Counted from the first letter of the stretch, positions 38,945 through 47,448 are shown. The stretch is 64,000 nucleotides of DNA from an uncultured Candidatus Saccharibacteria bacterium (GCA_964496425.1 CAZBZO010000002.1:66450-130449), one strand, 5' to 3'. The notes: generated by a model not told the origin, from the sequence alone. Numbers and translations: made by a program.

Positions 38945-39196
38945 ATGGATCTAAAACAAAAACCTTGGTGGCGGGATTCGCTTATGGTATTTGGTAAAGT
39001 GACCACGTGGGTCGCAATACCGATCGTCATGGCTTTGTTTCTCGGGAAATACCTTGACCGTGCTTTTGGTACCGAACCTTGGATATTTCTTGGACTTACT
39101 GGACTCGCATTTTTTGTTTCCATTTTCGGCATTCTCAAAGTTATAAAAGATTATTTAAAAACACTTAAAGACGAAGACACGACCACTCATGCATAA
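38945..39196 (+). CDS. AtpZ/AtpI-like small membrane protein (ATP synthase gene 1 family)
   Basis: 83 aa with two TM helices. LGKYLDRAFGTEPWIFLGLTGLAFF matches the PF09527-type pattern. First gene of the atp operon. Confidence 0.5.
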   Translation: MDLKQKPWWRDSLMVFGKVTTWVAIPIVMALFLGKYLDRAFGTEPWIFLGLTGLAFFVSIFGILKVIKDYLKTLKDEDTTTHA

Positions 39197-40118
39197 CGAA
39201 GAAGAAATTGTTCATACGACAGAAGCCAGTGAAATTGCTCACGCTGAAGGTGATGCAGCACATGGTGAAATTGCTCATGAAGTCACCATCTTTGCAGAGC
39301 CGATCACGCATATCGGCAACTTTACTGTTACCAACGCACTCCTCACCAGCTGGATCGCTGTCGGCATCATCATCATACTTTGTGTGGCAGTGCGCTTAAG
39401 CATCCGGAAGGTGCCTGGCAAGCTTCAAACATTTTTTGAAGTTATCATCGAACAAACACTCAACCTCACCGATCAGATCACCGGCAACCGCGCCAAATCC
39501 CTCAAAGTCTTTCCCATCGCGATGGCGGTGTTTTTCTTTATCCTCATCAACAACTGGCTCGGTATTTTGCCGCTTGGAGCATTTGGCCTGGTGGCAGAAC
39601 ATGGCGGTGAGAGCGCTTTTTTGCCATTTTTACGAAGTGGTACAGCAGATATCAATACCACGCTCGCCCTTGCAGTCATGGCAGTCATCGGCTCAAATGT
39701 CTTTGGAATCCTTTCGATCGGCGCCTGGAAAACATTTAACAAATATGTTAATCTAAAGGCGCTCGGACGCATCTTTACTGATGTGCGCAAGGATCCGAGT
39801 GTTTTAATGGTGGCGCCGGTCATGTTCTTTGTCGGTATCCTTGAACTCGTCGGAGAAGCCGCCAAAGTCGCCTCATTGTCGTTTCGTCTTTTCGGAAACG
39901 TCTTCGCTGGAGAAGTGCTTTTGGCCTCGATGGCGGCACTCCTAGCGTACGTACTCCCAATACCATTTCTCGGACTTGAAATATTTGTGGGACTGATTCA
40001 GGCGCTCATATTTTCAATGCTCACTCTGGTCTACTTTGCGATTGCATCGGAGGATCATGAGGCGCACGAGGAAGAGCATCATGAAAAACACGAGCCTGCA
40101 TTACATCAGACCGCGTAA
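39189..40118 (+). CDS. atpB: F0F1 ATP synthase subunit a
   Basis: Polytopic protein with the conserved Arg in LSFRLFGN, in operon context. Confidence 0.85.
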   Translation: MHNEEEIVHTTEASEIAHAEGDAAHGEIAHEVTIFAEPITHIGNFTVTNALLTSWIAVGIIIILCVAVRLSIRKVPGKLQTFFEVIIEQTLNLTDQITGNRAKSLKVFPIAMAVFFFILINNWLGILPLGAFGLVAEHGGESAFLPFLRSGTADINTTLALAVMAVIGSNVFGILSIGAWKTFNKYVNLKALGRIFTDVRKDPSVLMVAPVMFFVGILELVGEAAKVASLSFRLFGNVFAGEVLLASMAALLAYVLPIPFLGLEIFVGLIQALIFSMLTLVYFAIASEDHEAHEEEHHEKHEPALHQTA

Positions 40119-40164
40119 TCAATTTATTATAAGTATTATTAATTATTAAAAATATAAAGAGCAA

Positions 40165-40410
40165 TTGCTCAAAAACAATTATATGGAAGACACAGCAACA
40201 AATCTTATCCCTCTCGCTAAAGCTATCGCTATCGGCCTTGGCGCTATTGGCCCAGGACTTGGTATCGGTATGATCGGCGCTCGCGCCATGGAAGCTATTG
40301 GTCGCAACCCTGAAGCTGCCAACAAAGTGCTCGTGCCAATGCTTATCGCATCAGCCTTTGCAGAAGCTATCGCTATTTACGCGCTCGTTATTGCGTTCTC
40401 ATTGAAGTAA
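40165..40410 (+). CDS. atpE: F0F1 ATP synthase subunit c
   Basis: Two-helix hairpin proteolipid with GIGMIGA motif and the conserved carboxylate in [11 protein letters not shown]. Confidence 0.9.
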
Positions 40411-40476
40411 TAAGCCAAAAGCGAGTAGGGAATTGGGAAAGCATCCCTCTCTTCCCTGATCGCTATTTATTCTTAT

Positions 40477-40974
40477 ATGGATTCTCTCATCACAACATTT
40501 CACATTGACTGGAAGATCATGATCGCTCAGGCGATCAACTTTGCAATTGTCTTTTTCGTCATTTGGCGCTTTGCCATCCGGCCGATCAAAAAGCTGATGG
40601 ATGAACGCACTGCCACGATCGACAAAGGTCTCGCAGATGCCAAAGTCCAGGCTGAAATACTTGCTCGGACTGAGACTGAATACCAGGCAATGCTCACTCA
40701 AGCTCGTAAAGAAAGCCAAGAGATCGCGGCCAAAGACAAAAAGGAGCGCGAGATTGAACATGCCAAAGAGACGGAAAAGACTCGTGCCGAAGTCGCTCGC
40801 ATGATTGAAGAAGGACGCAAACAAATAGAGCTTGATAAAAATAAAATGATGACGGAGATCAAAAGTGAAGTCGCAGACCTGGTGATCGCCAGTACTGAAA
40901 AAGTCCTCGGTAAAGCCGTGACCCCGCATCTTGATAAGGAGATAGTTAAGGAAACCATCAAGGAATTAAAATAG
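40477..40974 (+). CDS. atpF: F0F1 ATP synthase subunit b
   Basis: N-terminal TM followed by a long charged helix. In operon position. Confidence 0.8.
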   Translation: MDSLITTFHIDWKIMIAQAINFAIVFFVIWRFAIRPIKKLMDERTATIDKGLADAKVQAEILARTETEYQAMLTQARKESQEIAAKDKKEREIEHAKETEKTRAEVARMIEEGRKQIELDKNKMMTEIKSEVADLVIASTEKVLGKAVTPHLDKEIVKETIKELK

Positions 40975-45183: not shown

Positions 45184-45185
45184 TT

Positions 45186-46550
45186 ATGACAGGAAAAATC
45201 AAATCAATTATAGGCCCAGTTGTAGACGTCGAATTCGGAGATCATCTTCCGGAGATTTATAGTGCGCTTACCGTGATGAATGGCGACAAAAAAGTCGTGC
45301 TTGAGACCGAGCAGCATATCGGTGGCAACACCGTCCGCGCAGTCGCTATGGACACCACCGACGGCATGTATCGTGGCATGGAAGTCACTGATAGTGGCGC
45401 TCCTATTTCCGTACCTGTCGGTGCTGCGACGCTCGGGCGACTCTTCAATGTCTTGGGCGAAACCATCGACGGAAAGCCACTTGGAGGTGATTCAAACAAA
45501 ACTCTTCCGATTCACCGCAAGGCCCCAGAATTCACCGCACAGGCTACAAAGGTGGAAATCCTAGAAACAGGTATTAAGGTTATTGATTTGATCTGTCCAG
45601 TCTTGAAAGGCGGTAAGGTAGGACTCTTCGGAGGTGCCGGCGTGGGAAAGACCGTGGTGATTCAAGAGCTCATCCACAACATTGCGAGTAATCACGGCGG
45701 CTACTCAGTCTTCGCTGGTGTTGGTGAGCGTACTCGTGAAGGTAACGACCTCTACCATGAAATGAAAGAGTCTGGCGTGATCGACAAGGTCGCCATGGTT
45801 TTCGGACAAATGAATGAACCGCCAGGTGCTCGTCTCCGTGTCGCACTCTCAGGGCTCACCATGGCCGAACACTTCCGCGATGCCGAAGGCAAAGATGTGC
45901 TCCTCTTTATCGACAACATTTTCCGCTTCACCCAAGCTGGTTCGGAAGTATCAGCACTCCTCGGACGTATCCCTTCTGCGGTGGGCTATCAGCCGACGTT
46001 GGCCTCAGAAATGGGCGCCATGCAAGAGCGTATCACCTCGACCGATAAAGGCTCGGTGACCTCGGTACAGGCCGTATACGTGCCAGCAGACGACTTTACC
46101 GACCCTGCACCAGCGACGACCTTCGCCCACCTCGACTCGACCGTGGCGCTCAACCGCTCGCTCTCTGAGCTCGGTATTTATCCAGCAGTTGATCCGCTCG
46201 ACTCGTCTTCGACTATTCTCGACCCAAACATTGTCGGCAAGGATCACTACGATACTGCTCGCGATGTGCAAAAAATACTTCAGCGCTACAAAGACCTCCA
46301 AGACATTATTGCCATCTTGGGTATGGAAGAGCTTTCGCAAGACGACAAAGATCTCGTGCTTCGCGCCCGCAAAATCCAGAAATTCCTTTCACAGCCGTTC
46401 TTTGTGGCTGAACAATTCACAGGCACGCCTGGCGCGTATGTCTCACTCGCTGACACGATCCGATCCTTCCGTGAAATTCTTGACGGGAAGCATGATAGTA
46501 AACCTGAACAATCTTTCTACATGAAGGGAAGTATTGATCAGGTTGCCTAA
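45186..46550 (+). CDS. atpD: F0F1 ATP synthase subunit beta
   Basis: GGAGVGKTV Walker A and the beta-subunit DELSEED-region homolog. Confidence 0.97.
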
Positions 46551-46562
46551 TATTTTTACACG

Positions 46563-47006
46563 ATGTCATCTAATGAATTTGGTGAAATAACAAATCCAGG
46601 GGGAGAGGGTCACAAGAAAACACCTGAACAGGAGCTCTATCTTCTTTGCCAAAGTGGTTTAACTACTGGGAATGTTTTACCACCTGGGTTTGAATTGGAT
46701 GAAGGTGCTACGCTCTACTATAAATCTCACCATATTGATGAGATGAAATCACTTTTAGATGAGATAAGGCAATTTTCTTCACAAAATAAAATTGAGAAAA
46801 TTTTAAATCCTGTTAATAATGCAGAAGATAGTGTTCAAAATATCATTGCACAAATTCAAAGGAACATAGATTTTTCAGAAAGAGTAAATAGCGAGATTAA
46901 AATAAACCCTCCCAGGGTAGAAAATAAACTTACTGTCGAAGAACGAGAAAAAAGAAGGCAAGCAACGATAAATAAATTGAGAAAAAACAATGATAAAAAC
47001 TCTTAA
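46563..47006 (+). CDS. hypothetical soluble protein inserted between atpD and atpC (overlaps atpC start by 17 nt)
   Basis: 147 aa, AT-rich, with a C-terminal KR-rich coiled segment. Confidence 0.45.
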   Translation: MSSNEFGEITNPGGEGHKKTPEQELYLLCQSGLTTGNVLPPGFELDEGATLYYKSHHIDEMKSLLDEIRQFSSQNKIEKILNPVNNAEDSVQNIIAQIQRNIDFSERVNSEIKINPPRVENKLTVEEREKRRQATINKLRKNNDKNS

Positions 47007-47448
47007 ACTTAAAATTGTCACTCCAGAACGTACAATTCTCGAAGAAGATGTCGAGCAGGTGACCTTACCGACCTCGGAAGGGGAAATTACGGTACTACCT
47101 GGTCATGTGCCTCTCATTTCTACACTTCGCTCAGGCGAGATAGTCGCCAAGAAAGATGGTGAGTATATTCCAATGGCTGTTGTCGGAGGGTTTATAGAAG
47201 TCAGACCCACCTCCGCACAAGGCTCTGGCGTGGCAACGGAAGTTGCCGTGCTTGCAGATTATGCCGAATCTATCTCTGCTATTACTGAAGACGAGATCGT
47301 AAAAGCCAAAGCGCGTTCAGTAGAGCTCGCCAAGCTCGCTGAAAACAAAGAGCATGTCGACTTCGAACACTTTGCGACTGAACTTGAACGCTCACTTACC
47401 CGTGTGAAAATCGCCGATAAGTGGCGTACAAAAAAGTATCGTAAGTAA
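46990..47448 (+). CDS. atpC: F0F1 ATP synthase subunit epsilon
   Basis: N-terminal beta-sandwich region (LKIVTPERTILEEDVEQVTLPTSEGEITVLPGH) with a helical C-terminus. Confidence 0.85.
   Translation: MIKTLKLKIVTPERTILEEDVEQVTLPTSEGEITVLPGHVPLISTLRSGEIVAKKDGEYIPMAVVGGFIEVRPTSAQGSGVATEVAVLADYAESISAITEDEIVKAKARSVELAKLAENKEHVDFEHFATELERSLTRVKIADKWRTKKYRK

Follow-up and report, generated by a model that had tools for sequence, protein, structure and literature searches.

Why does an F1Fo ATP synthase operon, among the most conserved gene arrays of bacteria, contain four additional genes at four of its gene junctions? The question is raised by a 64,000-nucleotide (nt) stretch of DNA deposited under an uncultured Candidatus Saccharibacteria bacterium (GCA_964496425.1, CAZBZO010000002.1:66450-130449; hereafter the window, in whose coordinates all positions are given), where an atp operon on the plus strand (38945-47448) is interrupted by AT-rich open reading frames (ORFs). 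An earlier note on this DNA offered two explanations: selfish genes parked in a highly expressed operon, or lineage-specific accessory or regulatory subunits of the ATPase. We report that the four inserts are genuine, lineage-restricted protein genes, and that the window is the extreme case of a Patescibacteria habit of collecting accessory or selfish genes at these junctions. The comparison with related operons fits the parking explanation best, the junctions of relatives holding genes of selfish type; a role as subunits is left unsupported by the patchy distribution and unrelated contents of the inserts, and by selfish inserts that are equally conserved in position. On balance we favor the reading that the four are long-lived resident hitchhiker genes, expressed by read-through and comparable to phage morons, and are not components of the ATPase.

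Four extra genes in an intact F1Fo operon

ORF listing combined with Pfam and NCBIfam profiles places four extra ORFs, all co-oriented with the operon, in its F1 half: ins1 (80 amino acids [aa]; 40976..41218, +) between the genes for subunits b and delta, ins2 (131 aa; 43177..43572, +) between alpha and gamma, ins3 (230 aa; 44491..45183, +) between gamma and beta, and ins4 (147 aa; 46563..47006, +) between beta and epsilon (junctions written b|delta, alpha|gamma, gamma|beta and beta|epsilon below). This confirms the gene order and ORF lengths of the earlier note. Around the inserts, the genes for a, c, b, delta, alpha, gamma, beta and epsilon are intact, co-oriented and free of frameshifts, as in an F-type operon. 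The gaps bordering the inserts measure, in order, 1, 4, 4, 4, 2, 2 and 12 nt, followed by a 17-nt overlap between the end of ins4 and atpC. The overlap had been described correctly, and the spacing of 1-4 nt reported with it holds for every spacer but the 12 nt between the beta gene and ins4.

The inserts are AT-rich relative to the atp genes, as had been claimed. Their GC content is 31.7% (ins1), 30.1% (ins2), 34.2% (ins3) and 33.1% (ins4), thus 30-34%, compared with 46-52% for the six largest atp genes; GC at third codon positions is 24-27% compared with 41-55%. The mean of the whole window (42.6%) falls between the two classes, so the contrast has two components: the atp genes exceed the genomic mean, and the inserts fall short of it.

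Over 38769-52378, the window is matched with 100% nucleotide identity by eight contigs that come from different samples and were assembled separately (NCBI metagenome assemblies; Logan assemblies of SRR10036056/58/59/63), and eight independent identical assemblies exclude an assembly chimera. On re-translation all inserts are intact, and their frames are open beyond chance: under composition-preserving shuffling, frames as long as those of ins2, ins3 and ins4 never survived (0/20000 each), and that of ins1 survived in 0.26% of trials. Trained on the remaining window genes, a codon model gives a log-likelihood above zero solely in the annotated frame for 4/4 inserts; they score 0.11-0.21 per codon, where ordinary genes average 0.25, and ins1 has the weakest frame signal. 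A search of Rfam found no RNA family in the inserts; in the region it found only a tRNA-Ile, which precedes the operon.

Junction inserts are widespread in Patescibacteria

We retrieved related atp operons through their gamma subunit, from one genome per species and from metagenomes. The window groups with Patescibacteria that bear the labels Paceibacteria, Nomurabacteria or Parcubacteria, its gamma being at most 64% identical to theirs, and the host is a bacterium of this phylum (Paceibacteria, 'Nomurabacteria'-like). Among 73 complete operons of Patescibacteria type, 29 (~40%) carry at least one junction insert: 44 have none, 17 one, eight two, three three and one four, the last being the window (locus L023 also reaches four if an insert of 172 nt is counted). 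The comparison that the earlier note had proposed thus yields frequent inserts and no lineage-wide conservation. Almost every insert of the Patescibacteria-type operons sits on the F1 side. Of 15 operons from outside the Patescibacteria, 13 have no insert and two have one. In the clade closest to the window, inserts occupy alpha|gamma in 8/42 operons, gamma|beta in 7/44, beta|epsilon in 5/37 and b|delta in 1/30; the F1 junctions of this clade are occupied in 20/123 cases, compared with 0/90 for its three Fo junctions (Fisher p=1.3e-5).

The inserts share their general properties and little else. Insert ORFs of at least 70 aa are mostly co-oriented with the operon (48/62, p=1.7e-5), and 95% of insert ORFs have a lower GC content than atpA/G/D, the mean difference being 10 points. 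Clustering leaves 87 singletons, and many inserts are small membrane proteins belonging to no family. The recognizable ones include four-helix-bundle proteins of the 23S_rRNA_IVP/23S-IVS (Avd-like) type, found in six loci at four different junctions; nuclease-type proteins (GIY-YIG, and the PD-(D/E)XK families GxxExxY and PDDEXK_3); the toxin-antitoxin systems MNT-HepT (NTP_transf_2 plus HepT), PemK/MazF and DUF4258-DUF2283; and ORF6N, Bro-N, a PsbP_2-like anchored protein and a cyclophilin lipoprotein. In L165, an ART-PolyVal ADP-ribosyltransferase (PF18760, E=4.7e-10) lies beside a 188-aa orphan between atpA and atpG (L165:3027-3746).

Some of these genes keep their junction between lineages. 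An IVS protein stands at the same junction in L044 and L056 (71% identity; gamma 66%), the DUF4258/DUF2283 pair in L087 and L149 (81%/92%; gamma 77%) and the MNT/HepT pair in L010 and L087 (51%/30%; gamma 58%). As with ins2 and ins3 (below), the junction is kept across lineages whose gamma subunits are 58-77% identical. Since selfish-type inserts also keep their junctions, positional conservation here does not imply a role in the ATPase.

In a neighbor-joining tree built from alpha plus gamma, L165 and L040 stand next to the window. In all three, alpha|gamma and gamma|beta are both occupied, and the only family in common is that of ins3, in the window and L165; the inserts of L040 are membrane ORFs and a DUF5674 protein. 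Which relative is nearest to the window varies by gene (L165/L040 for alpha, L001/L083 for gamma), which could reflect rate variation or recombination within the operon. Taken together, these data show that inserts are retained repeatedly, across the phylum, at b|delta, alpha|gamma, gamma|beta and beta|epsilon, with contents that are unrelated between lineages.

Low-GC (29-38%) ORFs belonging to no family also lie between conserved genes elsewhere in the window: a 115-aa ORF at 12671-13018, just upstream of an frr-like gene, and five consecutive small ORFs at 23727-25384, most of them encoding membrane proteins, after a GAPDH-like gene. From these two places, the class of gene inserted in the atp operon also occurs elsewhere in the genome. 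Low GC is a property of this class of accessory genes and not a time stamp: positional homologues of the inserts and the other family-less ORFs are equally AT-rich, so AT-richness does not mark recency.

Two inserts have homologues at the same junctions

ins2 is a soluble protein; a compact alpha/beta domain spans its residues 46-130 and bears the invariant motif SNGNMxQNRPDGKMRTG. An AlphaFold2 model has a predicted local distance difference test score (pLDDT) mostly of 79-91 over residues 51-131, falling to 72 over residues 111-120. In L172, alpha|gamma is likewise occupied by an ins2 homologue, P0007, which is 61.6% identical at the amino acid level, with a proportion of nonsynonymous differences (pN) of 0.24 and saturated synonymous sites.

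For ins3, an exhaustive profile search returned the homologues P0003 and P0004, each directly upstream of atpD in its contig; in L165, P0004 is also directly downstream of atpG, hence at the gamma|beta junction. Compared with L164, ins3 is 60.5% identical at the same gamma|beta junction, with a ratio of nonsynonymous to synonymous substitution rates (dN/dS) of ~0.16. Compared with L165, it is 29% identical over 206 residues (26-29%), and the conserved cysteines and a C-terminal 'SI(T/S)IN' are kept. The GC content of the family is 0.30-0.34 in the three lineages, compared with 0.44-0.52 for flanking genes. In the homologue comparisons of ins2 and ins3, pN is 0.24 and its synonymous counterpart pS 0.69-0.96: both genes are under purifying selection.

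ins3 has an N-terminal transmembrane helix and conserved cysteine pairs, and is predicted to be anchored in the membrane and, probably, to face outwards; a surface or membrane location is probable for both ins1 and ins3. AlphaFold2, given a three-sequence alignment of ins3, produced an unusable model (pLDDT 35; the transmembrane helix is its sole confident part), too poor for a fold search. One candidate assignment of ins3, to PsbP_2 (PF18933), was rejected: the match has E=0.89, P0004 has no match, and hhalign against the PsbP_2-positive insert of L001 gives a probability of 2%.

A word-index search with ins3 retrieved ins3 itself and nothing else, and neither ins2 nor ins3 belongs to a family in Pfam, NCBIfam, PADLOC or PHROGs; sequence searches of the PDB with the ins2 and ins3 profiles gave nothing significant. 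The profile and structure searches suggested by the earlier note thus place none of the four inserts in a known family, with the ins2 domain modelled and the ins3 model unusable. Searches of six-frame ORFs from ~170 loci with tblastn, phmmer and hmmsearch found no relatives of the inserts beyond L164, L165, L172 and L163.

The last of these loci holds a relative of ins2 in a different setting. A word-index search with a concatenated ins2+ins4+ins1 query had P0002 (L163:165-962) as its sole match: the ins2 domain is 51% identical to the C-terminus of this protein, whose N-terminus matches the PADLOC candidate PDC-S60 (E=4.7e-15) and, weakly, DUF4062. P0002 adjoins a PDC-S54-like protein of 512 aa in L163, and the two may be an undescribed defense-type gene pair that uses the SNGNMxQNRPDGKMRTG domain. 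A candidate catalytic Asp in a LAGLIDADG-like helix of ins2 is not conserved in P0002.

The orphan inserts

ins1 has an N-terminal hydrophobic anchor and two cysteines in its tail, and occurs only in the population of the window. ins4 is soluble and charged, with a C-terminal half of low complexity. Neither has a detectable relative in a word-index search of 5.8 billion proteins or in the ~170 related loci (for ins1, none at E<=1), and neither belongs to a family in Pfam, NCBIfam, PADLOC or PHROGs. Both look younger or lineage-specific, because b|delta is free of inserts in both L165 and L040, as is beta|epsilon in L040. A paralogue search had suggested a kinship of ins1 with other small membrane ORFs of the window; it matched hydrophobic segments only and was rejected as evidence of a family.

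Expression and retention

The earlier note considered the inserts almost certainly co-transcribed with the ATPase genes. Operon anatomy bears this out indirectly: the genes share a strand, their junctions are tight or overlapping, no terminator-like site was found at the borders of the inserts, and promoter-like sites are not above chance (21 found, against 15.1 +/- 3.8 expected from shuffles). The inserts would therefore be transcribed by read-through from the atp promoter. Shine-Dalgarno motifs (GGAG/GAGG/AGGA at -20..-5) precede 5/72 genes, compared with 8% of random in-gene 16-mers, which is no enrichment, and gene junctions typically read TAA-N(2-4)-ATG. As appears to hold for every gene of this genome, translation of the inserts would need no Shine-Dalgarno sequence; ribosomes that terminate at a TAA-NN-ATG junction would probably reinitiate there.

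Lodged among closely packed essential genes, an insert would have its expression guaranteed and would be hard to delete cleanly. The inserts may be kept since clean deletion is rare, or as useful genes, or for both reasons, and their own functions would be unrelated to ATP synthesis. The F1 half appears to tolerate inserts and the Fo half not; the native Fo spacers are longer and may be regulatory. The low GC of the inserts would come from the general composition of accessory genes together with the raised GC of the atp genes, with no sign of recent arrival.

Alternative explanations

Several observations count against the hitchhiker reading. Read-through and translational coupling are deduced from anatomy; the four window genes have no match to a nuclease, transposase, toxin or defense family; they have no flanking repeats, inverted repeats or target-site duplications beyond chance-level short repeats, and no relatives in phage records or viral contigs. 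The survey covered atp operons, and in it the nearest relative differs by gene, a pattern that would fit vertical persistence and lateral exchange alike. The fixed junctions of ins2 and ins3 also fit a function tied to the ATPase, and ins2 evolves about as slowly as gamma (nonsynonymous rate dN 0.29 compared with 0.30). Such a function is the core of an alternative that we consider quite unlikely, in which some or all inserts, ins2 and ins3 above all, would serve the ATP synthase of their clade as accessory subunits, assembly factors or regulators, kept in the operon for stoichiometric co-expression like atpI/atpZ. Beyond the positional homologues under purifying selection and a divergence of ins2 no faster than that of gamma, it can draw on the small membrane proteins common at the junctions of relatives and on an operon that already opens with an AtpZ-like accessory membrane protein. 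It runs against the patchy distribution, most relatives at similar distance having no insert: 44/73 operons have none, ins2 occurs in two lineages, ins3 in three, and ins1 and ins4, which lack any relatives, in one. L165 and L040 have unrelated genes at alpha|gamma, including the toxin-type ART-PolyVal domain; toxin-antitoxin and IVS inserts are equally conserved in position, so position is uninformative on function; the ins2 domain recurs in a defense-type context outside atp operons; and, judging from the transmembrane helix and conserved cysteines, the bulk of ins1 and ins3 is probably outside the cell, away from F1. In Pfam and NCBIfam, ins1-4 have no match at E<=1 beyond noise to known accessory families such as AtpI, AtpZ or AtpR. 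A different proposal, which strikes us as rather doubtful, is that the F1 junctions are integrase-free 'cassette slots' across Patescibacteria, where accessory, surface and conflict genes would be acquired, swapped by homologous recombination through the strongly conserved atpA/atpG/atpD flanks and retained since excision harms an essential operon, with some long-term residents, the ins2 and ins3 families, co-opted for a function linked to the ATPase or the membrane of these episymbionts.

The foreign look of the inserts, which the earlier note took as a sign of insertion, invites the further view that they are recent foreign or mobile genes, gained by horizontal transfer or as homing-type elements targeting atp, with AT-richness marking their origin. 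We regard this as unlikely. ins2 (61% identity to its positional homologue) and ins3 (29-61%) are old residents with the same low GC in their homologues, so recency fails for these two. Codon-frame statistics are host-like, and in the four inserts neither a nuclease, integrase or transposase domain nor terminal repeats were found, nor any viral relatives. In the comparison set, which is distant (best gamma identity 64%), ins2 and ins3 do not exceed their flanking genes in similarity. With regard to particular classes of mobile gene, the window inserts contain no recognizable GIY-YIG, HNH, LAGLIDADG or PD-(D/E)XK domain of homing endonucleases, and the LAGLIDADG-like helix of ins2 has an Asp that P0002 does not keep. 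No transposase domain was found and only chance-level short repeats, as regards transposons and insertion sequences; each window junction holds a single family-less gene and no known toxin-antitoxin pair; and PADLOC matches none of ins1-4, the only link being the ins2 domain in P0002. For ins1 and ins4, an origin de novo from AT-rich intergenic spacers of the operon, as young and weakly constrained proto-genes, would agree with the lack of homologues among 5.8 billion proteins and 170 related loci, with their very low GC, with the charged, low-complexity C-terminal half of ins4, with the frame score of ins1 (lowest of the four) and with the AT-rich spacers of 150-300 nt, devoid of long ORFs, that several relatives have at the same junctions. 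We find it improbable, as a 147-codon open frame at 33% GC never arose by shuffling (0/20000) and in-frame codon statistics are positive for ins1 and ins4; moreover, the exhaustive profile search that revealed the relatives of ins3 was run for ins3 only, and relatives of ins1 and ins4 may go undetected. Finally, an artefact, either an assembly chimera or non-coding spacers with spurious ORFs, would account for the compositional discontinuity and for nothing else; refuted by the identical assemblies, the open-frame statistics, the frame signal and homologues under purifying selection, it has a negligible probability. The hitchhiker reading is thus the one that we retain.

The atp genes and their surroundings

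Pfam and NCBIfam recognize the Z, a, b, delta, gamma and epsilon genes directly, and alpha, beta and c through identical public gene calls. All atp genes are on the plus strand. The operon opens with a gene for an atpZ/atpI-like small membrane protein (38945..39196, +; PF09527 ATPase_gene1, E=3.4e-8), followed by atpB for Fo subunit a (39189..40118, +; PF00119, E=4.8e-42). Subunit a has His/Glu-rich tails (N-terminal ...HAEGDAAHGEIAHE..., C-terminal ...EDHEAHEEEHHEKHE...), which are unusual for AtpB and possibly metal-binding. Then come atpE for Fo subunit c (40165..40410, +; PF00137 on the identical gene of L166, 61-85% identity with relatives) and atpF for Fo subunit b (40477..40974, +; PF00430, E=5.4e-22), which starts at 40519 in the public gene call.

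In the F1 half, ins1 is followed by atpH for subunit delta (41223..41636, +), a short form of 137 aa that matches PF00213 OSCP (E=2.1e-21) over profile positions 54-172 only. Delta is short clade-wide, measuring 127-141 aa in relatives across Patescibacteria (delta genes of L011-L160), and its N-terminal part, normally in contact with alpha, appears reduced throughout the clade. The gene for subunit alpha, atpA (41667..43172, +), has 74-81% identity with Paceibacteria relatives and a Pfam match on the identical gene; after ins2 stands atpG for gamma (43577..44488, +; PF00231, E=2.3e-86), and after ins3 atpD for beta (45186..46550, +; 81-86% identity with relatives, Pfam on the identical gene). 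The last gene, atpC for epsilon (46990..47448, +), matches PF02823 (E=5.9e-24) and TIGR01216.

A tRNA-Ile(GAT) gene lies at 38752-38826, ~120 nt upstream of the atpZ-like gene, and further upstream is a strong terminator-like hairpin (38118-38147; 12 bp stem plus T-run). The two probably delimit the atp transcription unit on its 5' side. A 119-aa protein encoded just upstream of the tRNA and the operon (38271-38630) has, by eye, a domain of the RNA recognition motif type (RNP-1/RNP-2) and a Gly-rich tail. Immediately 3' of atpC lies a gene (47478-49364) whose 628-aa product has an N-terminus resembling a signal anchor and for which no Pfam domain is recorded; the best promoter-like site of the region precedes this gene (TTGACA-17-TATTAT, 11/12 matches).

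Relation to known systems and significance

Phage morons and free-standing homing-endonuclease genes, such as T4 seg and mob, sit between conserved genes. The atp inserts resemble them as AT-richer extras between conserved co-oriented genes, variable among relatives and riding the transcription unit of their host, and, as with homing genes, the atp junctions of relatives carry GIY-YIG and PD-(D/E)XK proteins. They differ in that their host is a cellular operon, and an essential one, instead of a phage genome, and in that the four of the window have no nuclease domain and no promoter or terminator of their own, two of them being old residents under purifying selection. The junctions of relatives also hold small selfish or conflict genes (23S rRNA-IVS, GxxExxY PD-(D/E)XK, GIY-YIG, HEPN-MNT, MazF and DUF4258-DUF2283), with which the window inserts have the same junctions, low GC and orientation bias in common; none of the four window proteins belongs to these families.

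AtpI and AtpZ, like AtpR and AtpQ of N-type operons, are small membrane proteins that atp operons encode and that act as accessory or assembly factors, and the AtpZ-like gene at the 5' end here is an example. These proteins are widely conserved and encoded upstream of the Fo genes, whereas the inserts lie in the F1 half, are related neither to these families nor to one another and occur patchily. In the F1-like X0 ATPase clusters of Mycoplasma (types 2 and 3), alpha- and beta-like genes are interleaved with unknown membrane proteins. The window shows a similar alternation of ATPase genes with uncharacterized proteins; the extras of Mycoplasma are conserved parts of a divergent ATPase, whereas here a canonical, complete F1Fo is combined with extras that vary by lineage. 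Finally, accessory genes gather between core genes in hotspots such as defense islands and integration hotspots. The atp junctions have fixed positions, turnover of content, toxin-antitoxin and ADP-ribosyltransferase cargo, and a domain, that of ins2, which recurs in a protein matching a PADLOC candidate. Unlike such hotspots, they are a few nt wide, lie inside an essential operon and have no integrase, tRNA attachment site or repeats. We found no prior description of these inserts in the searchable literature, which is weak evidence of novelty; they are apparently an undescribed variant of a known genome behavior.

On present evidence the locus does not encode a new kind of ATP synthase. It adds two new small protein families, ins2 (motif SNGNMxQNRPDGKMRTG) and ins3, and shows that neither conserved position within an operon nor low GC is here a reliable guide to shared function or recent transfer. 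In a phylum of reduced genomes, the atp operon is a frequent long-term host of unrelated accessory genes, and its junctions are defined positions where genes of surface and conflict type that evolve fast can be sought in uncultured Patescibacteria. Placing new genes inside essential operons with strong transcription is a way in which very compact genomes can house and express them.

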